The notes under the pieces: generated by a model
Seen by the model: only the letters and a program-made list of their open reading frames with translations
Database searches by the model: none
What the model was told of the DNA's origin: nothing
IMG/VR virus record: IMGVR_UViG_3300022561_000019
Coordinates: 1 to 45,576 of that record
Strand: one strand, 5' to 3'
Length of the DNA: 45,576 nt
Source: a virus
Translations under genes and position numbers: made by a program
In this document: one piece after another, positions 6,126-19,897 of the stretch
How the letters are laid out: each line of letters begins with the position of its first letter
Position numbering within the stretch: the stretch's first letter is position 1

Positions 6126-8228
6126 ATGGCAGATATAATAGATAAGATAGCAGCAATAAGAGCGGCTGATTATGGTATAGAAGTAAAAAAAAGTATTGCA
6201 GACGGAATAGAATCTATAAACATAGAGGTAGTAAATACTACAGAAAGGCAGACTGTATTAGAAACTGATATGTCTACTGCAAAAGCCGATGCAATCCAAG
6301 CTACTGCAGATGCTAATACAGCTACAACTAATGCCGATAATGCTACCGAAGTAGCAAATATAGCAATAACAGAAGCAAATACCGCTAGAGATAATGCAAA
6401 TGAAAAAGCAACACTAGCAGATAGCAAAGCAACTTTGGCACAAACTGCAACAGATATTGCAAACACTACAGTTGAAAATATAAATAATAATACATTAATA
6501 ATATATAAACCTTGGGTAGCTAATTTTGCTGCAATAGCTACTGCCTATCCAGCACCTGTTTTAGGCTGGACAACACAGACTATAGATACAAATACTCGTT
6601 ATAGATACAACGGAACTGCATGGACTAATATTGGAGCTTTTAGTGGTGATAAAACTGGAGATATGAGCCAAATATCTGAAACAAATTTAGTCCAGGCGGT
6701 GCTTAATGATAGGTCACAATTGGCAGATATGACGAAGGACTTAAATGATTACAAACACCTAATTGTTAATGGTGATTGGAGTATTGCATTACAAACTGCA
6801 ATAAATGAAAGTTTAGATAATGCGGTAATTAAAATTCCACATGGTGTGATTATTAAAAACCCCGTGTGTATTACGAATATAAATGCAATAAGGTTTATCG
6901 GTGACAGAGGGAAAGAAGAAGTAAACCCTAATATTACGGTAAGTGGTGCAGGTACGATTGATTTGTTATTTACACGTAATTGTACATTTGAGAATATTAG
7001 TTTTTTAGGAGATAGAAATAATCGCCCCGAAAGGATATTTTTATTAGGAAGGACTGCTTTTGGGGAGTTCCCGTACGGTCACCGGTTTATTAATTGTGGG
7101 TTTTATGGTCATTGTGAGAAATATGCGGTTGTAATTTCTGGTGGAGAAGTAAATAAATTTATATCTTGTGATTTTTCGATGGCTAGTAATAAGGGTATTT
7201 GTTGCATTACAGACAATACCGACAATGAATTTAGTTCAACATTTGCCACACTTACCAATACTATAATATCAACTACAATAAATAGTTTTGACCATTGTAG
7301 TTTTAGTTATTATGGTGCATTAGATAGTTGCGAAGCTTTAATAAAATTTGAGACAGAAAATTGTGGTTCGACTTTTAATGATTGTTATTTTTTAAGTAAT
7401 GGTCTAGTAGCAGGCAAATATCCTGACGTATTTAAGTTTTTACTTAGTCAATCATCGACTGGAAGATGTGTCACTATTACTAATTGCGTCCATGAAAACA
7501 TGAATTTCGGTGGATCATTTTTAAAATGTGTATCTAGGAATGCAAATGTATATGATTTTGTTTTTGTAATGGTTGGTAATAAATTTAAAGGACATTCTGT
7601 TGCATCGGGTTATGCATTTGATTTTCAAAATGTAACATTATTGAATTCATTAATGAAATCTAATAGTTTTATGTGTTCGGGTGTTGAAGTCGGAAGGTTA
7701 AAATTTGGTAATTTTATATCTTGTGATATTGATTTACCTAATGCAACGGATAGTAGTTCTCTATTTGGTGATATTTTAATGAGTAAAATAGTATCGAGAG
7801 CGTTGATAACATCCTTACAAATTAAAACACCATTGCAAATACGAGGTAGCATAATCAAAAATCAATGGGAAATATATATTGACCCTTATTGTAATGATAT
7901 TTTCAAAGTTGGTAGAATTGAATTTACCAAAGCACCTGATGGACAAACATTAATTAAGACAAATAGCCGAATTATTAATGTAATGCCAACGTCGGCTTTA
8001 GGTGGAGTAAATACGAATGATGGAGATATAGCAATAAGCACGGGAGTAGGTACAGTTCAAATTAAAGTAAATGGTATTATAAAATTTTTACAACCAATTG
8101 TAGCATGTACAACTGCAACGAGACCAACCGTATCAATAGTTGGGTTTCATGTTTTTGATACTACTTTAAATAAAGGTATAGATTGGAATGGTAGCGTGTG
8201 GAAAGATGGTTCCGGCGTAACTGTTTAG
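6126..8228 (+). CDS. Tail fibre / receptor-binding protein with a probable right-handed beta-helix (depolymerase-like) domain
   Basis: 700 aa. N-terminal Ala/Thr/Asn-rich coiled coil. Central Cys/Asn/Phe-rich periodic segments (IKIPHGVIIKNPVCITNINAIRFIGDRG, ISFLGD, FINCGFYG). C-terminal TTATRPT...FDTTLNKGIDWNGSVWKDG motif seen at fibre C-termini. Confidence 0.65.
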   Translation: MADIIDKIAAIRAADYGIEVKKSIADGIESINIEVVNTTERQTVLETDMSTAKADAIQATADANTATTNADNATEVANIAITEANTARDNANEKATLADSKATLAQTATDIANTTVENINNNTLIIYKPWVANFAAIATAYPAPVLGWTTQTIDTNTRYRYNGTAWTNIGAFSGDKTGDMSQISETNLVQAVLNDRSQLADMTKDLNDYKHLIVNGDWSIALQTAINESLDNAVIKIPHGVIIKNPVCITNINAIRFIGDRGKEEVNPNITVSGAGTIDLLFTRNCTFENISFLGDRNNRPERIFLLGRTAFGEFPYGHRFINCGFYGHCEKYAVVISGGEVNKFISCDFSMASNKGICCITDNTDNEFSSTFATLTNTIISTTINSFDHCSFSYYGALDSCEALIKFETENCGSTFNDCYFLSNGLVAGKYPDVFKFLLSQSSTGRCVTITNCVHENMNFGGSFLKCVSRNANVYDFVFVMVGNKFKGHSVASGYAFDFQNVTLLNSLMKSNSFMCSGVEVGRLKFGNFISCDIDLPNATDSSSLFGDILMSKIVSRALITSLQIKTPLQIRGSIIKNQWEIYIDPYCNDIFKVGRIEFTKAPDGQTLIKTNSRIINVMPTSALGGVNTNDGDIAISTGVGTVQIKVNGIIKFLQPIVACTTATRPTVSIVGFHVFDTTLNKGIDWNGSVWKDGSGVTV

Positions 8229-8248
8229 TTACACAATTGGAAAATAGT

Positions 8249-8280
8249 GCGTACGTACAAATACTTATTTGTACGTACGC
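8249..8280. terminator. Perfect 15-bp inverted repeat after the fibre gene (possible terminator or operator)
   Basis: GCGTACGTACAAATA-ct-TATTTGTACGTACGC. No clear T-run follows. Confidence 0.4.
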
Positions 8281-8293
8281 ATATGTAAAAAGG

Positions 8294-8321
8294 TTACAAA
8301 GTAATCACTCTGTTATATAAT
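8294..8321 (+). promoter_or_regulatory. Sigma-A-like promoter for the RHH gene
   Basis: TTACAA (8294-8299), 16 nt, TATAAT (8316-8321). Confidence 0.35.
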
Positions 8322-8339
8322 AATTTTGGGGTGATTATT

Positions 8340-8516
8340 TTGGACAAAAAGAAAAGAGCAGATCATTTAAATATTAGTATCAAACCAGAAATTGTTGAAG
8401 AATTTAGAAAGTATGCAGAAAAAAAGGGAGTATTAATATCTCCTTGGGTAGCTGCAAAGATGCGCGAGTTTATTGAAGATGAGAAAGCTCTGGAAGAAAT
8501 GAAAAAGAATAGGTAA
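8340..8516 (+). CDS. Ribbon-helix-helix (Arc/CopG-like) DNA-binding protein
   Basis: Pattern HLNISIKPEIVEEFRKYAEKKGVLISPWVAAKMREFI fits beta-strand, helix, helix. TTG 8340 follows SD GGGGTGA; the alternative start is GTG 8331. Confidence 0.55.
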   Translation: MDKKKRADHLNISIKPEIVEEFRKYAEKKGVLISPWVAAKMREFIEDEKALEEMKKNR

Positions 8517-8579
8517 AAAAGTAAGGCATCCATAAGGGTGTCTTTTACTTTTAAAAAGAAAGGGTGTGTTCTTGGTATC

Positions 8580-8714
8580 ATGCAAATAAAAGAAATTAAA
8601 GAGATGTTAAGAATTATACATGGATTATTTAAATACCTAACATCAGAAGAAGTTGATGAAATTGTAAACCTGTTACATGATATAACAACAAGAAAAACAC
8701 ATAAGTCGCAATAG
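8580..8714 (+). CDS. Hypothetical 44-aa protein
   Basis: ATG ORF (MQIKEIKEMLRIIHGLFKYLTSEEVDEIVNLLHDITTRKTHKSQ) below the track cut-off. SD spacing is poor. Confidence 0.3.
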   Translation: MQIKEIKEMLRIIHGLFKYLTSEEVDEIVNLLHDITTRKTHKSQ

Positions 8715-8838
8715 TAAATACTTATATTTATATGTGCTTATAAACCCTTACAAATAGCCATTCGTACATATAAATGGATATTATTTACAATAGGAAAACA
8801 GGACGACACAACTACAAAATAAAATAACACAAATTAAG

Positions 8839-8861
8839 AGGGCCTCCAAGGGTCCTTTTTT
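8839..8861 (+). terminator. Rho-independent terminator just upstream of the lysis cassette
   Basis: AGGGCC-tccaag-GGTCCT hairpin (one G-U pair) followed by TTTTTT. Confidence 0.5.
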
Positions 8862-8887
8862 AATACAAAAATACTAGGAGGTATGAT

Positions 8888-9319
8888 ATGGATAAAGGAA
8901 CTTCAATTAAAACAGTAATAGCAGTAATGGGGACATGTTTAACGTGGCTGTTCGGTGTGTGGGATACGGCTATAATAGTTTTACTCTTATTCATGGTGCT
9001 TGATTATATGACAGGATTAATAAAGGCATATGTAAATAAAGAGATCTCTTCTGATGTGGGCCTTAAGGGCATAGCTAGGAAGAGTTTAATACTTATAGTA
9101 ATAATTGTAGCGGTTTTGTTAGACAGACTCTTAAATGCGGGCACATGGTTATTTAGGACATTGATATGTTACTTTTACATTGCAAATGAGGGCATTAGTT
9201 TACTAGAAAATTGTGCTCAGTTAGGGTTACCCATACCAGAAAAATTAAGAGATGCACTAGTACAGTTACAGGCTGGTAATAAAAAAGGCGCTAAAGAGGA
9301 GGAGAATAAAGTTGAATAA
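8888..9319 (+). CDS. Holin (phi29/TcdE-like holin_4_1 type)
   Basis: 143 aa, about 3 TM helices. Motif YFYIANEGISLLENCAQLGLPIPEKL. Overlaps the endolysin start. Confidence 0.85.
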   Translation: MDKGTSIKTVIAVMGTCLTWLFGVWDTAIIVLLLFMVLDYMTGLIKAYVNKEISSDVGLKGIARKSLILIVIIVAVLLDRLLNAGTWLFRTLICYFYIANEGISLLENCAQLGLPIPEKLRDALVQLQAGNKKGAKEEENKVE

Positions 9320-10106
9320 AGTTTGGATTGATGATGGACATGGCGGAAGTGATCCAGGAGCTGTTGCTCTTGGGCTAGTAGAAAAGTCAATTAACTTGGT
9401 AATGTCTTTATCCTGTAAAGCAGAACTAGAAAGACATAATGTATTGGTGGGAATGACAAGACTAGGTGATGCTACAGTATCACTTACACAAAGAGCAACG
9501 CTAGCCAATAATTGGGGAGCTCATTATTTTATATCTATCCATAACAATGCTGGTGGAGGTGATAGGGGAGAGGTTATTCATTCTGTTAATAATGGTAAAG
9601 GATTAGAACTAGCTAATAAAATAGCTATAAAAATAAAAACAGAAACGCAGCAAGATTTTGTGAAAGTATACTCAAGACCTTCAACTAGCAGCCCTAATAA
9701 AGATTACTATTCGGTAATTGCTAATACCAAGATGCCAGCAGTTATAGTGGAGGGTGCATTCTTAGATAATCACTTAGATAATAACGCTATAGACACTGTA
9801 GAAGAGCAAAAGGGTTTTGGGGTTGCAATTGCTCATGGCATATTAAATCAGCTTGATGTGGCTATAAAATCAACTATAAAGCCTATAGTTATAGTTCCTA
9901 TAGAAGAAAAACCTTTTGTTGTCCCAGCAAATAATTTAATTCCACCAACTGGCCCAAATATTACATTGTTAAACGGTGGCGGATGGATTGAACATGCAGC
10001 GGATGGCAGAGTTATAACACATCAATCAAGATCAGTATATTTTGCGATAACCGCGGATGGTCATTTAGATTTTACTGTTAATGGAGTTTGCACAAGATTA
10101 AAATAA
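9312..10106 (+). CDS. Endolysin, N-acetylmuramoyl-L-alanine amidase (Amidase_3) with an uncharacterised C-terminal domain
   Basis: WIDDGHGGSDPGAV...ISIHNNAGGG...EGAFLDN motifs. TTG start after GGAGGAGAA. Confidence 0.9.
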   Translation: MNKVWIDDGHGGSDPGAVALGLVEKSINLVMSLSCKAELERHNVLVGMTRLGDATVSLTQRATLANNWGAHYFISIHNNAGGGDRGEVIHSVNNGKGLELANKIAIKIKTETQQDFVKVYSRPSTSSPNKDYYSVIANTKMPAVIVEGAFLDNHLDNNAIDTVEEQKGFGVAIAHGILNQLDVAIKSTIKPIVIVPIEEKPFVVPANNLIPPTGPNITLLNGGGWIEHAADGRVITHQSRSVYFAITADGHLDFTVNGVCTRLK

Positions 10107-10123: not shown

Positions 10124-10321
10124 ATGGATTTAAAAACAAGAATGAAAAACAAATATTTTTGGGTGGCTGCAGTAGCATTAGTTGTTGCTGTAGTTAAACA
10201 AGTCAATCCAACAATTATCCCAGAAAACTATGAAGTTACTGTAAATGTGGTTTTAACATCCCTAGTTGCCATGGGAATACTTTTAGATCCAACAAGTCCT
10301 GGCATAGAAGATAAAGAATGA
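10124..10321 (+). CDS. Second small holin-like membrane protein (phage_holin_1-like)
   Basis: 65 aa from ATG 10124 (SD GGAGGT). KNKYFWVAAVALVVAVV TM helix, a second TM helix, and a C-terminal LLDPTSPGIEDKE tail. Confidence 0.7.
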   Translation: MDLKTRMKNKYFWVAAVALVVAVVKQVNPTIIPENYEVTVNVVLTSLVAMGILLDPTSPGIEDKE

Positions 10322-10874: not shown

Positions 10875-10908
10875 TTTAATCATCCTTTCATGTGTATATA
10901 GATTATTG

Positions 10909-10962
10909 GTCGCATGTCGTATATGTGACTTAACTTTATTGTACATTGTCGCAAGTCGTATG
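10909..10962. promoter_or_regulatory. Two direct operator-like repeats between divergent HTH genes
   Basis: GTCGCATGTCGTATATG (10909-10925) and GTCGCAAGTCGTATG (10948-10962). Confidence 0.4.
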
Positions 10963-11115
10963 TCAATACAATTTGTAAAAAATAATTTAACCAATTGAGT
11001 TATAGAATCTGAGGTTAGAGGATCTAGCTTCAGGATTTTTTTATTTTTGTTACAAATATAAAGGAATTTAAAACACTTTGGAGAATATTTACATAATATG
11101 AATTGAGGTGGTTAT

Positions 11116-11316
11116 ATGGTTAAAAATAAACTACTACAAATAAGACTAGGTTTAGGTTATAAATTCCAAAAGGATTTTGCAGAATTTTTAGAGATAAACC
11201 ATAAAGATTATAACAGGATTGAAAATAACAATAAACAAGTATATCTTGAAACTGCAATCAATATAGGCCAAAAATTAAATATGAAAATTGAAGATATATG
11301 GTACTTAGAAAAATAA
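11116..11316 (+). CDS. XRE-family (Cro/CI-type) HTH regulator
   Basis: 66 aa. LRLGLGYKFQKDFAEFLEINHKDYNRIENNNKQ fits an HTH_3 pattern. SD GAGGTGG. Confidence 0.75.
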   Translation: MVKNKLLQIRLGLGYKFQKDFAEFLEINHKDYNRIENNNKQVYLETAINIGQKLNMKIEDIWYLEK

Positions 11317-11446
11317 GTATCATATTTTTTTATGATTAAATCTACTACTTAATAGATTATTTATAGTGGACAAGCAACATTTCATGAATTGGTACATAGA
11401 ATGTTATTAGGTAGTAAGGTAAAGAACAATAAACAGGAGGTACAAA

Positions 11447-11596
11447 ATGCCGAAAGTAGAGGTAAGTTTTAAGCAAACATCAAAAGACATGAAGCTATTT
11501 GCAAAAGTAATTAGTGAGGAGGAGAAGTCCGTTTTTGTTAAAAATGCTCTTGAATTTTATATTGAGTATCTAGAAAATAATAAAAAAAGGCAATAA
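11447..11596 (+). CDS. Small ribbon-helix-helix-like protein (49 aa)
   Basis: SD AGGAGGT. MPKVEVSFKQTSKDMKLFAKVISEEEKSVFVKNALEFYIEYLENNKKRQ has a beta-strand then two-helix layout. Confidence 0.5.
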   Translation: MPKVEVSFKQTSKDMKLFAKVISEEEKSVFVKNALEFYIEYLENNKKRQ

Positions 11597-11748
11597 AAAG
11601 AGCCTAACCTGTGTGGTCAGACTTATTCTATCTCGCGAACCCTTACGTCTTGCTACGCTTCAACGCCTCAAGTTAGCTTATGCATCCATTATTTGAAATG
11701 TGCTACTTTTAACACTATATTAATTGTTTATTAACAGAATATTAATAA

Positions 11749-11814
11749 TTATAGGAAAGCTTGAATTAAATCAACTGCAACAATTAAACCCGCGCCAAAT
11801 GCAAATAACAACAT
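11749..11814 (-). CDS. Candidate 21-aa hydrophobic peptide
   Basis: MLLFAFGAGLIVAVDLIQAFL, preceded by SD AAAGGATGTGA at correct spacing. Divergent from the operon promoter. Confidence 0.25.
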   Translation of the reverse strand: MLLFAFGAGLIVAVDLIQAFL

Positions 11815-11837
11815 GAAATCACATCCTTTATACTATT

Positions 11838-11865
11838 TTGATTATATTATGACCCAATATATAAA
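11838..11865 (+). promoter_or_regulatory. Sigma-A-like promoter of the three-gene membrane/ATPase operon
   Basis: TTGATT (11838-11843), 16 nt, TATAAA (11860-11865). SD GGGGGAAG lies before ATG 11886. Confidence 0.4.
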
Positions 11866-11885
11866 TAATTATTCAGGGGGAAGAT

Positions 11886-12305
11886 ATGGAAATATTAATT
11901 ATTAAAAATAATAAAACTATAGTTAATCATGAATTTAAAACATTAAGTAAAAAACATGCTGAGGATATGGAGTTAATTGCAACCAAAATTAATAGCAATA
12001 CTGGGACCAAAAGAGCGGCTATATTTGTGCTAGGTAGTTTACTGTGTTTTAACAATATTGTTGTAGCGGCAGCAAGTAAGGATCCTTTAAAGGCATTACC
12101 TATAGTTGGTGCTAAGATTTTAGATATAGTGCAAATGTTCGGATGGTTTATATGCGCAATAGGTGGTGTAATAACAATTTTAAAAGCTCTTATGGCGGGA
12201 GATACAAAAAGTATTCCCAAAATAATGATGGGATTTGGTATGGGATTTGCTTCACTTTATTTATTTCCAGCATTATTAAATATGATTAAAGATATATTTC
12301 AATAG
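11886..12305 (+). CDS. Membrane protein with pre-pilin-like (VirB2/TrbC-like) layout
   Basis: 139 aa. Hydrophilic leader of about 43 aa, then signal-like helix AAIFVLGSLLCFNNIVVAAA|SKD, then two hydrophobic helices separated by the loop LKALMAGDTKSIPK. Confidence 0.7.
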   Translation: MEILIIKNNKTIVNHEFKTLSKKHAEDMELIATKINSNTGTKRAAIFVLGSLLCFNNIVVAAASKDPLKALPIVGAKILDIVQMFGWFICAIGGVITILKALMAGDTKSIPKIMMGFGMGFASLYLFPALLNMIKDIFQ

Positions 12306-12318
12306 AGGAGGTATCTAT

Positions 12319-12750
12319 ATGTTCCTAAATAGAATGTTAGCAGCCGCACCAACAGAAATAGAAAAAATGTTATTAGAACAACAGGAAACTCTAAGGAAAT
12401 TAGCAGAGATTAAAGTTAATGTAGAAAAACTTAAAAGTGGTAGCATTGGGCAAATGTATGATGCCCCTAATACTCTAAAAACTCCAATTTTTGATATGGG
12501 TAGTATTTCATGGGTTGCAAAAGCTGAGAGTTTTTTTAATGCTACAGATAAGGCTATAAACTGGTTAACGCATCCAGTACTAATAATTAATAGCGTAGCA
12601 GGAATTAGTTTTTATATAGCAGTAGCGGTTGGACTTACTGGCCTTATATTTTATATTGTTGGAATTAAGAAGGGCATGAAATATACTGTAGGAAGTGTGA
12701 TTGGTTACTCTTTAATTCAAATAGTAAACTATGGGGTGAGCTTATTGTGA
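12319..12750 (+). CDS. Membrane protein (N-terminal coiled coil, 2-3 C-terminal TM helices)
   Basis: 143 aa, SD AGGAGG. VLIINSVAGISFYIAVAVGLTGLIFYIVGI and YTVGSVIGYSLIQIVNYGVSLL. 4-nt overlap with the next gene. Confidence 0.7.
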   Translation: MFLNRMLAAAPTEIEKMLLEQQETLRKLAEIKVNVEKLKSGSIGQMYDAPNTLKTPIFDMGSISWVAKAESFFNATDKAINWLTHPVLIINSVAGISFYIAVAVGLTGLIFYIVGIKKGMKYTVGSVIGYSLIQIVNYGVSLL

Positions 12751-15095
12751 TAAGCATGAAATTGTCTAAGTATATTGAAATAGTTTATCCTGTGTACGTG
12801 ACACTTAAAATAGTTCCAGATACTAGCATAAGGAACTACAATTCTAGCACAATTGCAAAGGCCATGAATTACACATATAGGACTATAGCTCAAAGGATTC
12901 ACAAGGAGGAAAAAAAGTTAAAATGGAAAGTTGATGCCCCAGCCAAAATTAGTTTCTTTATAGATATTAAAAAAAATGATGTTAGTTTTTATTTTATAGT
13001 TCCTGAGCGCCATCTAACCTTAATAAAAGAAAAAATTACTAACACATGGCCAAAGGCTGCTATCACAATTGCAAATGAAATTAGCCCCTTTTCTAAAGAT
13101 GCAATTATGTATCAATTAAAATATTCTAAAGAAGATGCTATGAGCCTCAATTTGGATAAGAAGTGTAATGAGCCCTTGAATGGTATTCTAAATGTATTAG
13201 ATGTGCTAGAGGAAGATGACAGGGTGGGAATTTTCTATAATTTTGTACCTGTACAACAAAAGGGGTGGAGGCAAGAGCACCAAAGGACCATGGATAAAAT
13301 TAAAAAGAACGAATTTATAGATAAGGAAAAGTTTAATGCCTGGTTTATTATTAAAAGTGGAATGATGCTATTAATTAATTTAGTTCAAGACTTTATGGAT
13401 ACTCTTGGTGATTTTCTAGGAGCTGAACGCAAAAGTACAACTCTGTCATTGGCAGAGGTAGCTATGAGTAGTTTAATTCTAGAGAACACTAAGAAACCAA
13501 CTAGCGCCACCATGAGCAAAAAGGATTCTACAGTAATAAACACACAAATATTAGTCATATCTGAGAGTGAAGATAAGCAAAGACAAAATAATACTGCTAT
13601 AGGAGTATGTGAAAGCTTCAGCACGATTAATGAAGATAATAAACTAATATATAAAAAAGTAAAAGCAAAAAATATATTTTATGTAAATGATTTAAAAATT
13701 GCTGGGGCAGAAGAAAATAAGTGTAGTATTGAAGAATGTCAAAACTTCCTGGAGCTTCCGGGAAAGGAATTATTAATTCAACATAAAATAATAAAAAAAA
13801 TTGATGCACTAGAAACCAAAGTTCCAGAAGAATTACAAAGTGGAATTATAAGAGCAGGAATAAACATGTATAAGGGTATACCATCAAGAGTTTATCAAAC
13901 AGAGGATGAAGAACTCAGGAATACTATAATGTGCGTTTGTGGACCGAATAGGAGTGGTAAAACCACACTTATAGCTAATATAGTCAAAGATGTAATGGAA
14001 GATGGCAGAAGTGTAATTCTACCTGACTTCTGTGGCAAGTGTGAATTGTCAGATGCACTTGCTCAAGTAATTCCAGCAAACAAAATTATTAATGTAAATT
14101 GTAATGACCTACTGAATGTACAAGGATTTGGATTTAATGAAATAGTACCACATGATGAAAGTATGGAAGCATTATATATTTGTGCTAAGAAAAAGGCTGC
14201 TAAATTAAAAGAGCTTATTAATTTAATCAACTCAGGTGAAAGTGATCTTGAAGGAAGAATGGAAAGATATTTAGAGTTTGCAGCGCTTATAGTATTTGTG
14301 AGTAATGGTCCTGTAAATGATGTATTTAAAATGCTAAAGGATCATGTTCTAAGACATAAATACATTAATAGCATTCCAGAAGAGCTTGAATCAAATATGG
14401 AAGAATATGTGGAAGAATTATTGGAGATAGATGAGATAGGGAAAGCCAAAGAAAATTTAGGGGAGGTAATAGGTACAAAAATGGGGAGCATCTCTGCAAT
14501 ACTAAGTAGGATCCATAGACTTAAAGAAAATGCCTATATAGAAAAAATGTTAAAAAAAGATTGTAAGGACAATATAAATTTAATTGATGCAATGCAAGGT
14601 GGTAAATTGATTTGCATAAGGATGAGCACAGATATGTTTGGCACAAATGCGGAGAAAGATATATTCGTATGTTATTGGATGGTTAAAATGTGGGCAGCTC
14701 TCCAGAAGAGATTTAATGATGTAGAGAGGGAGGACTTAACTCAGGCAGTAATACTTATAGATGAGTTATATCAGGTTAAAAATTGTGAAATATATCTAAC
14801 TAGTATATTAAGCCAAATAGCCAGGCATAGAATTAAAATAATTTTAAGTTGTCACCATCTAGCCCAAATTCCAGTAATTCAGAATGAAATGAAATCCGCG
14901 CTCTGTAGTTATACATTTATAGCTGGAAGCAATAAGAAAAATTTTAATGCTATGAAAGAAGAATTTACTGATAAAGGTTACGAACTAGAAGACTTGCTAC
15001 ATTTAAAAAGACACAATGCATTAAATTTGTTAGCTTATGAGGGAGGATACTGGGCAGGGATAACGCAACTTCCTTCACCAATTAAGAGGATGTAG
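12747..15095 (+). CDS. Large P-loop NTPase of the VirB4/HerA/FtsK superfamily (VirB4-like size and motif spacing)
   Basis: 782 aa. Walker A GPNRSGKTT (nt 13941-13967, aa 399-407). Walker B AVILIDE (from nt 14745). Then RHRIKIILSCHHLAQ. GTG 12747 follows SD GGGGTGAG. Confidence 0.8.
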   Translation: MISMKLSKYIEIVYPVYVTLKIVPDTSIRNYNSSTIAKAMNYTYRTIAQRIHKEEKKLKWKVDAPAKISFFIDIKKNDVSFYFIVPERHLTLIKEKITNTWPKAAITIANEISPFSKDAIMYQLKYSKEDAMSLNLDKKCNEPLNGILNVLDVLEEDDRVGIFYNFVPVQQKGWRQEHQRTMDKIKKNEFIDKEKFNAWFIIKSGMMLLINLVQDFMDTLGDFLGAERKSTTLSLAEVAMSSLILENTKKPTSATMSKKDSTVINTQILVISESEDKQRQNNTAIGVCESFSTINEDNKLIYKKVKAKNIFYVNDLKIAGAEENKCSIEECQNFLELPGKELLIQHKIIKKIDALETKVPEELQSGIIRAGINMYKGIPSRVYQTEDEELRNTIMCVCGPNRSGKTTLIANIVKDVMEDGRSVILPDFCGKCELSDALAQVIPANKIINVNCNDLLNVQGFGFNEIVPHDESMEALYICAKKKAAKLKELINLINSGESDLEGRMERYLEFAALIVFVSNGPVNDVFKMLKDHVLRHKYINSIPEELESNMEEYVEELLEIDEIGKAKENLGEVIGTKMGSISAILSRIHRLKENAYIEKMLKKDCKDNINLIDAMQGGKLICIRMSTDMFGTNAEKDIFVCYWMVKMWAALQKRFNDVEREDLTQAVILIDELYQVKNCEIYLTSILSQIARHRIKIILSCHHLAQIPVIQNEMKSALCSYTFIAGSNKKNFNAMKEEFTDKGYELEDLLHLKRHNALNLLAYEGGYWAGITQLPSPIKRM

Positions 15096-15118
15096 CATAA
15101 GTGCTATATCCTCTTTTT
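15086..15118 (+). terminator. Rho-independent terminator of the three-gene operon
   Basis: GAGGAT-g-TAGCA-taag-TGCTA-t-ATCCTC followed by TTTTT. Overlaps the stop codon. Confidence 0.7.
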
Positions 15119-15253
15119 ATAATACCTTATAAACAGTATATTCATTTTAAGCCTATACTAAAATGCATAGGTAATATCATAAGGGCAATATAGTTAGACA
15201 AGTCTTACAAGCCAAATTTGAGGGTCAGTTTCACAATGAAACTTAAAATTAAT

Positions 15254-15475
15254 CTACTTATTTTTATATACAATTAGTTTTCTCGGAGTTGTATCCAGGG
15301 CCAATGCAATGTCACATAGCAATGTTAATCTTATGTCATATTTACCATTTTCAATTTCAGATAAAAAATTTCTACTTATTCCAACTTTTTTTGCTAATTC
15401 TGTTTGCGTTAGTTTTTTAGCCAGCCTTATTTCTTTGATTTTAAGTCTATATTGGTCCATATCGTAATTATACAA
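15254..15475 (-). CDS. XRE-family HTH regulator
   Basis: 73 aa. LAKKLTQTELAKKVGISRNFLSEIENGKYD. The alternative start ATG 15460 sits 6 nt after a TATAAT, so the mRNA may be leaderless. Confidence 0.75.
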   Translation of the reverse strand: MYNYDMDQYRLKIKEIRLAKKLTQTELAKKVGISRNFLSEIENGKYDIRLTLLCDIALALDTTPRKLIVYKNK

Positions 15476-15581
15476 TGCACTCGTATAACTTGTATACAGG
15501 TAAGTTATGACAGGTGTTGTTACCTTATGTGTCTTGTTTTAACGTTACGTTGAAATTATAATTATTCCATGGGGTGGTAAT

Positions 15582-15734
15582 ATGTTAATACATAGAGTTA
15601 GATTTGGTAGTTCTATGGATAAGAAGCTAGATGAGGGTTTGCGGAAGTTAGCAAAAGAATCAAGAATAACAATATCAAAACTGCTGGATGAAGCCATAGA
15701 AGACCTTTTAATAAAACACTCTGCTGATAAGTAG
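15582..15734 (+). CDS. Small ribbon-helix-helix (CopG-like) protein (50 aa)
   Basis: SD GGGGTGG. MLIHRVRFGSSMDKKLDEGLRKLAKESRITISKLLDEAIEDLLIKHSADK. Divergent from the XRE gene. Confidence 0.5.
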   Translation: MLIHRVRFGSSMDKKLDEGLRKLAKESRITISKLLDEAIEDLLIKHSADK

Positions 15735-15944
15735 GGTGTTTTGTACTTTTATGGGATAATTTAGTGCAAAATTGTCGAAACTGTCGGTGCGCTCGACACT
15801 ATTTAGACTTATAATAAATATGCGATAAATAATTAACAAGAAACTATTGCAAATCTTGAATAAAAACACGAACACTTGTTCTTTACTTATCGTGGATAAA
15901 AGAGTATTATAAATAATTACAGGAGATAAAAAACTGGGGGCGCA

Positions 15945-16145
15945 TTGATAATGAATAAAATAAAATTCTATAAATTAAGATATAAAAATAAAAGAATATT
16001 TTTAGGATATTGCAATTATAAAAATTTTAAATGGTCTTGTATAAAAATAAATGGGTGTCTTTTTCTAGTTATAAATAGTAATTATAGCCAACAAAACAAG
16101 AGCAAGATACTCCATCAGATTTTACGCGGAGAAATAAGCAACTAA
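15945..16145 (+). CDS. Hypothetical 66-aa protein
   Basis: Track ORF with Lys/Asn-rich, low-complexity sequence. SD GGGGGCG is weak. Confidence 0.3.
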   Translation: MIMNKIKFYKLRYKNKRIFLGYCNYKNFKWSCIKINGCLFLVINSNYSQQNKSKILHQILRGEISN

Positions 16146-16225
16146 CACACAACTAACAAAACAGGCTCTAAGGCTTGTGAAATGGTGGTTGCAAATTCTC
16201 AAAGAGATAAAAATAACCAAGTTGA

Positions 16226-16257
16226 AAACCCCACAAACGCTGATGTTTGTGGGGTTT
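16226..16257. terminator. Bidirectional terminator downstream of int
   Basis: AAA-CCCCACAAAC-gctgat-GTTTGTGGGG-TTT. T-runs are present on both strands. Confidence 0.7.
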
Positions 16258-16299
16258 CTTCTTTATAAAAACGTATGAAAATGTATCAAAATTTACTCA

Positions 16300-16332
16300 C
16301 AACTAACATATAACTAACATATAACTAACAAA
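16300..16332. repeat. Three tandem 11-bp repeats (TAACTAACATA-like) next to int; probable arm-type sites of attP
   Basis: cAACTAACATA TAACTAACATA TAACTAACAaa. Two more ACTAACA copies lie at 16141-16147 and 16152-16158. Confidence 0.5.
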
Positions 16333-16352
16333 CTATTATATTTAAAAAGCTA

Positions 16353-17375
16353 TTAGATTAAATCAATAGCTTTTTTTAATTGCTCTATATCTTTATGTGT
16401 ATAAACATTAGCAGTAGTTTCATAACTAGCATGACCTATTATCTTTTGTAGAGCAATTGTATCAGCTCCAGCATTACTCATTAGAGTTGCAAATGTATGT
16501 CTGCAATCATGTGGTTTATGTTTAAAGTTCAATTGCTCCATAATTGGTGTGAATTTCTCTTTGTAATAATTTTCATATTTGAACTGCTTTCCATTTTCTC
16601 TAGCAATTAAATACTCGTTACCCTCAGATACTCTAGCAGATATCATATCAAAAATTTTACTACTTATTGGTATAATCCTATCTTTACCAGCATCTGTCTT
16701 AATTCCACCAGTTATGGTCCTGTTCTCCAAATCTACATCTCCTGGCTTAAGTATAATTAATTCTCCTATTCTAAGGCCTGTATAAATCATAATTAAAATA
16801 GTATCTACGTATTTAATACTATCTTTAACTTCAATTAATCTTTTTATTTCCTTATCAGAAAATGCCTTTCTTGTGCTGTCCTCGGTATTTTTACCTATTT
16901 CTACGTAGTTTGAATAGTCCTTATTTATAATATCATTTTCCATTGCAAATTTAAAAAGCTGATTATAAAGAACTTTAATTTTTCTTAAGTTACCATGTTT
17001 TTTACCACATGTCCTTATAACGTCTTGCATATGCTTAGTTCTTATATCGACAAACTTCATATCATGTAGAGCAGCGCAAGTTATATACGCAGCCTTATAA
17101 CCATTAACTGCGCTTTGAGTTACACTTTCAAACTTACCTACATTCCAATTATTATATACATCACTAAAAGTTACAGTTGATACTTCTATACTATAGGGAT
17201 CCTTATTAAAATCAGCCAAGGCTTGCATTGCTAATTCCCTTTTTTCATAATATCCTATAGTCTGATATAACTGTTTTGCATTATCATCCCATCCTATAGT
17301 CTTACGAGCCATGAAAGGCTTTCTTCTTTTGCCACTTAACTTATAAACTGATCCATAGCCATTTGGGTTTCTCAT
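16353..17375 (-). CDS. int: Tyrosine site-specific integrase
   Basis: 340 aa. YTGLRIGEL, HDCRHTFATLM and GHASYETTANVYTH give the R..HxxR..Y catalytic set. Confidence 0.95.
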   Translation of the reverse strand: MRNPNGYGSVYKLSGKRRKPFMARKTIGWDDNAKQLYQTIGYYEKRELAMQALADFNKDPYSIEVSTVTFSDVYNNWNVGKFESVTQSAVNGYKAAYITCAALHDMKFVDIRTKHMQDVIRTCGKKHGNLRKIKVLYNQLFKFAMENDIINKDYSNYVEIGKNTEDSTRKAFSDKEIKRLIEVKDSIKYVDTILIMIYTGLRIGELIILKPGDVDLENRTITGGIKTDAGKDRIIPISSKIFDMISARVSEGNEYLIARENGKQFKYENYYKEKFTPIMEQLNFKHKPHDCRHTFATLMSNAGADTIALQKIIGHASYETTANVYTHKDIEQLKKAIDLI

Positions 17376-18631: not shown

Positions 18632-19216
18632 ATGAAAGAGGAACTGATCCAAGAGTTTAAAAACGGAAACAAAAGAGCCGGAGACGATTTTTACAATGCA
18701 AACAGAGGTCTGGTGCATACAGTAGCTAAAAAATACCAACGCATGAGTATGGACCAACAAGAGGTTATGGCAATAGTTAATCAAGCATTTGCACATGCAA
18801 TCAAAAATGTGGATTTAGAAAAAGCTATGTTTTCAACATACTTCGGAGCAGTAGCACATGGAATGATAATGAGACATATCAGAGATTATGAAAGCACTAT
18901 CAGGACGCAAAGAAAAGATGTGGCAGCAGGGAAAATAGTGTACTGCGAAAGTTTTAATCTAGTAATAGCAGGGGCATCTGAAGATATTACATTAGGCAGC
19001 AAACTTAGTTCGGAGCAAGATTTTACAAAAGTTTTTGTGGATGAGGCCCTAAGCAAAATCAATAAAAAAGACAGACAAGCTTTCAAACTTAAATTATTTT
19101 GTGATCTTTCACAGTGTGAGATAGCTGAAAAGCTTGGGACTAGTCAGGTAGAAGTTAGCAGGCGACTAGCAAGAGCCAAAACCTCATTAAAAATATTTTT
19201 GAGAGAGGTGAGTTAA
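18632..19216 (+). CDS. Sigma-70 family sigma factor, group-3 (SigF/SigG/SigB-like)
   Basis: 194 aa. Region 2 FSTYFGAVAHGMIMRHIRDYESTIRTQR. Region 4 LSQCEIAEKLGTSQVEVSRRLARAK. Confidence 0.85.
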   Translation: MKEELIQEFKNGNKRAGDDFYNANRGLVHTVAKKYQRMSMDQQEVMAIVNQAFAHAIKNVDLEKAMFSTYFGAVAHGMIMRHIRDYESTIRTQRKDVAAGKIVYCESFNLVIAGASEDITLGSKLSSEQDFTKVFVDEALSKINKKDRQAFKLKLFCDLSQCEIAEKLGTSQVEVSRRLARAKTSLKIFLREVS

Positions 19217-19642: not shown

Positions 19643-19897
19643 ATGGAAAGGGGTGCTACTTATACCAACACTAATATTATTAATGAACATGTAGAAAATG
19701 TTATCAAGTTGTATTTTTCAGGGTTCTCAGTAAGAGAGGCATTAAAAGAAGTTATGACTACAGAAGTATTACGAAAGAAATTAAACAAGCTTATAATAGA
19801 AAAAAATTATGATCTTACTGACCTAGAAGTAATTAGGTTATCCCAGAGATTAGATAAGCACATAGTAAAAGAACAAAGAAAAAAGGCTGCTCTGTAA
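19643..19897 (+). CDS. Spo0E-family aspartyl-phosphate phosphatase-like protein
   Basis: 84 aa, SD AGAGGTGA. The C-terminal LRKKLNKLIIEKNYDLTDLEVIRLSQRLDKHIV carries the SQxLD signature (nt 19841-19855). Confidence 0.55.
   Translation: MERGATYTNTNIINEHVENVIKLYFSGFSVREALKEVMTTEVLRKKLNKLIIEKNYDLTDLEVIRLSQRLDKHIVKEQRKKAAL

Follow-up and report, generated by a model that had tools for sequence, protein, structure and literature searches.

The 45,576-nucleotide DNA of IMG/VR virus record IMGVR_UViG_3300022561_000019 (hereafter the window, meaning the whole stretch that was analysed) carries a cassette in which two small membrane-protein genes, ORF1 and ORF2, precede the gene of a large ATPase, ORF3 (ORF, open reading frame). 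We are confident of the identity and ancestry of this cassette, which is of the same type as SPP1 gp31/31.1/31.2/32 and SPO1 gp27.9-27.4 and is a pared-down relative of the inner-membrane core of a type IV secretion system (T4SS). We lean towards a fuller explanation, in which the window cassette is this phage's copy of an accessory cassette conserved in phages and phage-plasmids of endospore-forming Bacillota and works as a T4SS-derived, ATP-driven envelope machine; how it might translocate anything is suggested here by analogy and tentatively. The cassette is an early or accessory phage function and not a defence cargo specific to lysogeny. The three genes and the parts of ORF3 are:

11886-12305, plus strand: ORF1, 139 amino acids (aa), with a long leader, a signal-like helix and a two-helix hairpin
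12319-12750, plus strand: ORF2, 143 aa, with a coiled-coil-like hydrophilic N-terminal part and a C-terminal two-helix hairpin
12747-15095, plus strand: ORF3, 782 aa, with a GTG start
12747-13901, plus strand: N-terminal domain (NTD) of ORF3, aa 1-385, of predicted VirB4 type
13902-15095, plus strand: C-terminal P-loop domain of ORF3, aa 386-782, with an all-helical insert between the Walker motifs
13941-13967, plus strand: Walker A motif of ORF3, GPNRSGKTT, aa 399-407
14748-14765, plus strand: Walker B motif of ORF3, VILIDE, aa 668-673, followed by RHRIKIILSCHHLAQ

A first-pass annotation, made from the letters of the DNA, had described three ORFs with a 13-nt gap between the first two and a 4-nt overlap between the second and third, a Shine-Dalgarno (SD) sequence and both Walker motifs, and all of these are present in the sequence. 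It had also called ORF3 VirB4-like and proposed profile and structure searches; structure gives VirB4, whereas no sequence model of VirB4 matches. Searches of Pfam and NCBIfam with ORF3 and 37 homologues returned generic P-loop matches below cutoff only, no FtsK or HerA model in either collection matched ORF3 as a single sequence or as a 37-sequence profile, and a PDB sequence search with the same two queries gave no match. Among the phage protein families of PHROGs, aa 7-766 of ORF3, nearly the whole protein, match phrog_5156 (E 6e-95), a family that carries no functional annotation, and the Pfam family TrwB_AAD_bind is matched by 7 of the 37 homologues. An AlphaFold2 model of ORF3 built on the 37 homologues has a mean pLDDT (predicted local distance difference test) of 84.6, and its best Foldseek match in the PDB, over the full length, is TrwK/VirB4 of plasmid R388 (E 8e-14, about 900 aligned columns). 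Further matches cover the C-terminal half only, all-helical insert included, and are to TrwB (1e9s, E 4.5e-10), HerA (8sub) and DndH-C (7es4). When aa 1-385 were modelled separately (pLDDT 83.1), the top nine Foldseek matches in the PDB were all TrwK/VirB4, with probabilities of 0.82-1.00 and E values from 8.8e-5 to 6e-3, and the matches ranking below these nine were noise. Because the NTD finds VirB4 only, ORF3 is by these models more than a P-loop domain of the FtsK/HerA type; none of the TrwB, FtsK, SpoIIIE and HerA pumps has such a domain. Type IV coupling proteins carry an N-terminal transmembrane anchor, whereas no transmembrane segment is predicted in ORF3 and its N-terminal 385 aa are VirB4-like in the model; we therefore rejected a coupling protein or FtsK identity. 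In the alignment of the 37 homologues R402, G404, K405, D672, E673 and Q676 are invariant, and G399, P400, K697 and Q707 are invariant or nearly so. The models thus support the view that ORF3 is an ATPase of VirB4 type, built of two domains and very divergent, whose Walker A and B motifs are intact; the VirB4-type nature of its modelled NTD appears to be new here.

The two small proteins have the layout expected of the partners of such an ATPase. As the first-pass annotation had said, ORF1 looks like a pre-pilin: a leader of about 63 aa ends in VVAAA|SKD, and the mature part of about 76 aa has hydrophobic helices near 81-102 and 113-131 that are joined by the short charged loop GDTKSIPK. Sites of the form xLA| that resemble this one occur in about 10 family members. 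This layout fits that of VirB2/TrbC pre-pilins, for a predicted cleavage site and with homology unproven; Pfam TrbC is touched weakly by 3 of 28 ORF1-family members (best E 0.0079), NCBIfam gave no consistent family for ORF1, and the ORF1-family profile found no pilins among PDB sequences. The hydrophilic N-terminal part of ORF2, about 85 aa long, is followed by two transmembrane helices that form a hairpin, where the first-pass annotation had given two or three. The hairpin loop is basic (KKGMKY in the window), with a net charge of +2 to +4 in every family member in which two helices are resolved, which should place the loop in the cytoplasm and both termini outside the membrane. ORF2 is VirB3-like in position, size, hairpin topology and the 4-nt overlap with the ATPase gene, with no sequence match in Pfam or NCBIfam. 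Profiles of the small proteins found nothing decisive among PDB sequences, a set of 5.8 billion proteins, Pfam and NCBIfam.

A possible link between ORF1 and an annotated pilin was considered on the plasmid pCLK, where a gene that NCBI annotates as a TrbC/VirB2 family protein precedes, with a 4-nt overlap, a full-length ATPase homologue of about 25% identity to ORF3. The pCLK protein aligns with the ORF1 profile colinearly but weakly (14 bits; hhalign probability 8.5%) and scores about equally against the ORF2 profile, and the link was set aside for these two reasons. The pCLK locus lies at 13597-16397 of the C. botulinum plasmid NC_010418, and no further named T4SS gene occurs within 14 kb of its ATPase homologue. 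Large botulinum-neurotoxin plasmids of the pCLK, pCLJ and pCLD types carry such a distant full-length homologue.

To describe how the cassette is distributed, we fetched 76 viral and 46 genomic loci; components were counted in the 106 loci with enough upstream DNA and neighbours in 61 dereplicated loci. Homologues of ORF3 were found by tblastn in 78 phage records, and two large protein sets gave 455 and 477 matches, the latter being clusters at 50% identity and near full length for most of the matches listed; a megablast of 11800-15130 against phages found no match. An ORF1-family homologue lies upstream of the ATPase gene in 100 of the 106 loci and an ORF2-family homologue, adjoining the ATPase gene, in 76. 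The order of small membrane protein, small membrane protein and ATPase, which the first-pass annotation had compared with virB2-virB3-virB4, is kept in 38 of the 40 dereplicated loci that have both small proteins. Two further genes belong to the pattern:

11116-11316, plus strand: Xre-type helix-turn-helix (HTH) gene, 66 aa, at the upstream end of the conserved cassette
11447-11596, plus strand: small ribbon-helix-helix-like (RHH-like; ParR/CopG-like) gene, 49 aa, of the SPP1 gp31 family

A homologue of the RHH-like gene stands directly upstream of ORF1 in 85 of the 106 loci, and jackhmmer found Xre-HTH homologues upstream of the ATPase gene in 52 loci; the window HTH gene itself matches Pfam HTH_19 weakly (E 0.013). 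Judged by these counts, the conserved cassette is larger than three genes and takes in both the HTH and the RHH-like gene. The trio had been described as a self-contained unit, and the three genes and their terminator stand, but the conserved unit extends upstream of them. The 49-aa protein matches phrog_18533 (E 2.5e-20), and searches started from SPP1 gp31 and from LY1 gene 03 recover the same ORFs as its family. From the alignment pattern, a beta-strand IxxSFK and a helix start SxS/GxF/YIK, we infer an RHH-type fold.

The same arrangement is found in SPP1, phiCp-D, TPDSL_ph2, LY1 and SPO1; in SPO1, a virulent myovirus, gp27.9 precedes the small membrane ORFs and the ATPase homologue gp27.4. 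Virulent phages carry the cassette, as do temperate phages and phage-plasmids; C. botulinum and C. tetani elements are among the carriers. VirB6, VirB8, a hydrolase, a coupling protein and a relaxase are absent among the top 25 Pfam families of the 253 flanking ORFs in the 61 loci, and no T4SS partner was seen at a C. tetani prophage locus. For the window itself, the earlier statement that the trio comes with no other secretion parts is borne out by the precomputed Pfam calls for about 8 kb to each side. The first-pass annotation had also considered that the trio might occur only as part of complete T4SS loci and so be a decayed fragment of an integrative and conjugative element (ICE); in the loci examined the cassette was never seen inside a complete T4SS locus, and 36 of the 37 plasmids that carry the ATPase gene are typed as non-mobilizable.

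The hosts are Bacillus, Geobacillus, Lysinibacillus, Brevibacillus, Alicyclobacillus, Paenibacillus, Sporosarcina, Clostridium, Terrisporobacter and relatives. Every host that could be identified is an endospore-former of the Bacillota; the exceptions among the matches are one Microcystis phage record, obtained by tblastn with SPP1 gp32, and three oddly labelled records. These three are two contigs of metagenome-assembled genomes tagged Bacteroidota and Brachyspira and one protein tagged Rhodopseudomonas; they and the Microcystis record may be mis-binned or chance matches. Control proteins of the same window match hundreds of phages of Streptococcus, Staphylococcus, Lactobacillus and Listeria.

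Relatives of the window cassette carry additional parts that bear on its function. Near the cassette, 28 of the 61 dereplicated loci have a gene for an actin-like ParM/Alp protein (Pfam ALP_N, MreB-like_C); with few exceptions this gene immediately precedes the cassette and shares its strand (for example at 8001-8885 of locus L101, at 7997-8869 of L131, and as SPO1 gp27.9, at 986-2005 of L126, E 1.4e-23). The order in Alp-bearing loci is HTH, Alp, RHH-like, ORF1, ORF2, ATPase, and an Alp gene also accompanies the cassette in the chromosomal C. tetani prophage. Of 22 loci with Alp, 16 encode an RHH-like protein that ends in an 'x-L-x-D-F'-type tail, against 3 of the 21 that lack Alp (Fisher p 1.7e-4, for a motif that was defined only after the alignment had been inspected). 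Such co-variation in sequence is what a ParR-type adaptor would show. The arrangement of Alp and tailed RHH-like gene directly upstream of ORF1 is like that of ParM/ParR and Alp7A/Alp7R; compared with ParMRC and Alp7AR, the window has a tail-less, short form of the RHH-like gene only, no actin-like gene, and no centromere found by repeat search. At 13 of 110 loci a catalytically intact Peptidase_M23 domain, a peptidoglycan endopeptidase, is joined to the ORF2 hairpin. There are two independent architectures (E 1e-31 and 1e-24), with M23 at the C-terminus in loci L029, L038, L059, L074 and L078 and at the N-terminus in L034-L036, L088-L090, L092 and L093. The fusion genes directly precede the ATPase gene, and since both termini of ORF2 are placed outside, the fused M23 domains would lie outside the membrane. 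What appears to be new here is the recurrent Alp link with its co-varying tail, the fusion to M23, the addition of the HTH and RHH-like genes to the cassette and the restriction to spore-formers.

Among characterized phages the closest likeness is to SPP1, in which genes 31/31.1/31.2/32 have the order and sizes seen in the window (an RHH-like protein, a protein with three transmembrane segments, one with two, and an ATPase of about 800 aa) and the ATPase gene likewise overlaps the preceding gene by 4 nt. By tblastn, SPP1 gp32 is homologous to ORF3, with about 23% identity, and gp31 falls within the window RHH-like family by independent search; gp31.1 and gp31.2 were included in the ORF1 and ORF2 alignments, and their hidden Markov model matches are not independent. 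SPP1 is virulent, and these genes are transcribed early, from promoter PE5, and are dispensable there. Transmembrane segments are present in the products gp31.1 and gp31.2, HHpred matches the C-terminal part of gp32 to TrwB, VirB4 and FtsK, and gp31.1, gp31.2 and gp32 have independently been proposed to form a trans-membrane translocon (Godinho et al. 2018, PMC6316719); the composition, to which the first-pass annotation could match no described defence system, is not undescribed. In the literature searched we found no experiments on a VirB4-like module of a phage and no experimental follow-up of the SPP1 proposal.

The comparison extends to secretion systems proper. With TrwL-TrwM-TrwK of R388 (VirB2-VirB3-VirB4; PDB 7o42, 8rtd) the cassette would have in common a two-domain ATPase fold, and with VirB2-VirB3-VirB4 in general the gene order; ORF1 would resemble VirB2 pilins in its long leader, AxA-type site and two-helix mature part. 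It differs from a T4SS in that no sequence model of any VirB2, VirB3 or VirB4 family matches, in that VirB6, VirB8, VirB1, VirD4 and a relaxase are not among the top 25 Pfam families of the flanking ORFs, and in being carried by phages of monoderm bacteria, in which conjugative pili are not known (PMC9905601). The archaeal Ced and Ted systems, minimal DNA importers made of VirB2, VirB6 and VirB4 with no relaxase or coupling protein (PMC9905601), are a further parallel. They too are domesticated T4SS derivatives with a VirB2-like small protein and a VirB4-like ATPase, often have ParA-like genes nearby, and have components too divergent for simple sequence recognition. Unlike the cassette, they have a VirB6-like channel protein (CedA/TedA) and are chromosomal in archaea, and import of DNA has been experimentally demonstrated for Ced, whereas the phage cassette is a putative transporter.

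By analogy with these systems, ORF3 would oligomerise and, in the manner of VirB4 on VirB3, dock through its VirB4-type NTD on the ORF2 hairpin, on the cytoplasmic side of the membrane. ATP hydrolysis could then serve to extract or assemble the pilin-like subunit ORF1, or to pass a macromolecule across the envelope; the most likely substrate for such passage would be phage DNA marked by the RHH-like protein. We propose that the M23 fusions point to an envelope-crossing role and the ParM/ParR-type neighbours to a link with DNA; elsewhere, the transfer of DNA by a T4SS is helped by partition proteins (PMC4949242, PMC8716806).

Several observations weigh against this explanation. None of the CagE_TrbE_VirB, AAA_10, DUF87 and NCBIfam VirB4 models matches ORF3, and the Foldseek TM-scores to VirB4 are low (0.30-0.37), so that the kinship of ORF3 with VirB4 is distant. 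The assignments of ORF1 to VirB2 and of ORF2 to VirB3 are drawn from layout and gene order only, and the RHH fold of the 49-aa protein lacks support from Pfam or PDB sequence searches. To our knowledge a VirB6-like channel protein is present in every characterised T4SS and in Ced/Ted, and among the top 25 Pfam families flanking the cassette in the 61 loci none was found. The window copy lacks both Alp and M23, and what is inferred from relatives may not transfer to it; the adjacency of partition genes could reflect a shared placement in accessory regions and not a shared function, and the tail motif was chosen post hoc. Finally, SPP1 grows without need for genes 31.2 and 32 (PMC6316719).

An unlikely alternative, but one that deserves some weight, is superinfection exclusion or anti-phage defence, in which a membrane complex made from the prophage or in early lytic growth would block or expel foreign DNA or trigger abortive infection. 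The first-pass annotation had suggested lysogenic-conversion or defence cargo, but the same cassette occurs in SPP1 and SPO1, both of them virulent, and this speaks against a role in defence. Exclusion genes are carried by virulent as well as temperate phages and are expressed early or from the prophage, as with T4 imm and sp and P22 sieA; the window cassette lies beside the lysogeny module, with regulators and a terminator of its own, and the SPP1 copy is non-essential. PADLOC reports a P-loop similarity between aa 392-723 of ORF3 and mad8 (E 5.9e-9); position and this match are all the positive support that the defence reading has. However, mad8 is one domain of MADS, an 8-gene operon of Pseudomonas; the other seven genes are absent and ORF1 and ORF2 have no PADLOC match, and we rejected membership of MADS. 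No known defence architecture fits the cassette, which in the 61 loci is flanked by genes for partition, lysis, recombinases and regulators and not by defence genes, and exclusion leaves the ParM/ParR-type link, the M23 fusions and the restriction to spore-formers unexplained.

That restriction, set against the wide range of the control proteins, is an argument for a second alternative, which we regard as rather improbable: the cassette, together with Alp/ParR where present, would position phage or phage-plasmid DNA at the cell pole and move it across the sporulation septum into the forespore, and the spore would thereby carry the phage genome. Such a role would suit the dispensability of the genes in vegetative laboratory growth, and the M23 fusions would suit the crossing of septal peptidoglycan; genes for a sigma factor and a Spo0E-like protein are also present in the window phage. 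There is a precedent in the virulent phage phi29, whose genome enters the prespore by way of the host Spo0J/parS partition system (PMC2731898). The association with spore-formers is, however, purely correlative and is confounded by shared host ancestry, and the Microcystis match and the three oddly labelled records lie outside that group. An integrated prophage, as in the window, enters the spore with the chromosome unaided, and the cassette has no gamma-domain or recognition sequence as in SpoIIIE/FtsK. Nor do we know of a VirB4 protein that pumps double-stranded DNA.

A related and speculative elaboration, on which we would place little reliance, makes the cassette a minimal type-IV-like conduit owned by the phage. 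The genome, marked by the RHH-like protein, would be passed by the VirB4-like motor through a channel of the two small membrane proteins into the forespore or a sister cell; actin-like filaments would position the genome where they are present, and the M23 hydrolase would open the wall in some versions.

It is still harder to credit the cassette as a membrane tether or cell-wall accessory that translocates nothing and would anchor replicating or segregating phage DNA or control lysis-related remodelling of the wall. The cassette directly follows holin and endolysin genes in the window, TPDSL_ph2, SPP1 and a C. tetani prophage, some relatives have the M23 fusion, and an Alp/ParR pair can stand upstream; but in SPO1, LY1 and phiCp-D it lies away from the lysis genes, the window copy has no hydrolase domain, and a VirB4-type two-domain motor with a pilin-like partner would be elaborate for a tether. 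Lastly, a decayed, non-functional fragment of an ICE or conjugative plasmid acquired by a phage, which the T4SS-like parts and the lack of VirB6, VirB8, a coupling protein and a relaxase nearby might suggest, is effectively excluded by genes that are open and full-length at over 100 loci of phages, prophages and phage-plasmids, by the invariant catalytic residues, the fixed gene order and a GC content uniform with that of the phage, and is further opposed by the typing of the carrier plasmids and by the lack of any complete T4SS locus around the cassette.

The T4SS-derived cassette thus remains the explanation we prefer, and its placement and control in the window can be described as follows. 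Its position between the lysis genes and the integrase region is as the first-pass annotation gave it: holin and endolysin genes lie upstream at 8888-10106, and Xre, Arc, integrase (16353-17375) and repressor genes lie downstream. The base composition of the cassette gives no signal of foreign origin. The sites flanking the trio are:

11693-11721, plus strand: promoter-like site TTGAAA-17-TATATT, a consensus match only and a candidate promoter of the trio
11709-11746, plus strand: direct repeat TTAACACTATATTAAT / TTAACAGAATATTAAT, copies 22 nt apart, a candidate operator
11838-11865, plus strand: earlier-proposed promoter TTGATT-16-TATAAA
11876-11883, plus strand: SD sequence GGGGGAAG of ORF1, seen in the sequence
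15084-15123, plus strand: intrinsic terminator that closes the cassette, with a hairpin at 15084-15115 and then a T-run

The strong terminator that had been noted is borne out, with a 14-bp stem, five GC pairs, a 4-nt loop and the T-run; terminator-like sites in the region number 8 against 2.4 expected. The promoter proposed earlier is present, but its 9/12 match is indistinguishable from chance density, since promoter-like sites in this AT-rich DNA number 39 against 36.6 expected. TTGAAA-17-TATATT is the better consensus site and overlaps the direct repeat upstream of ORF1, which is a candidate operator for the HTH or the RHH-like protein; this short two-copy repeat was all that a repeat search for a centromere returned. 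Gene callers start ORF3 at ATG 12756, which gives 779 aa and a 5-nt gap to ORF2, whereas GTG 12747 has a better SD sequence and agrees with the N-termini of homologues.

The gap of 290 nt between the RHH-like gene and ORF1 is unusually long, and antisense in it lies a minus-strand ORF (11749-11814) of 21 very hydrophobic aa (MLLFAFGAGLIVAVDLIQAFL), with an SD-like AAGGA upstream and its own minus-strand terminator at 11623-11601, where Rfam has no match. From its sequence it looks like a gene for a type I toxin or small membrane peptide. On the lysis side, a second holin gene (Phage_holin_1, 65 aa, 10124-10321) directly follows the endolysin gene, the first being Phage_holin_4_1 at 8888-9319. 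On the integrase side, several copies of an ACTAACA-containing motif (for example CAACTAACACACAACTAACA and CATATAACTAACATATAACTAACA) occur at 16135-16335 and flank a strong hairpin at 16226-16257, just 3' of the end of the integrase gene; these copies may be arm-type sites of the integrase or attP sites. An Rfam scan of 10900-16400 gave one sub-threshold match only, to ncr1175 (E 0.25), which overlaps this motif region. Precomputed Pfam calls further assign to the window phage a sigma factor of the sigma-70 family (18632-19216, 194 aa) and a Spo0E-like protein (about 19643-19897, 84 aa, PF09388), kinds of protein that are able to interfere with host sporulation.

Conservation of the cassette extends to the best-studied Bacillus phages, SPP1 and SPO1, and to many prophages and phage-plasmids of Clostridium. 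Should the cassette be a functional derivative of a T4SS, it would be the first phage-borne one in monoderm bacteria and a bacterial parallel to Ced/Ted, and it would show what a VirB4 motor is capable of without VirB6, VirB8 or a coupling protein. If the genome were indeed passed through a conduit of this kind, the phage would persist in spores or spread without virions. The restriction to spore-formers, together with the links to actin-like proteins and hydrolases, leads to testable hypotheses on the persistence of phages in spores, a matter that bears on toxin-carrying clostridial elements, and the question can be approached through the existing genetics of SPP1 and SPO1 in B. subtilis.

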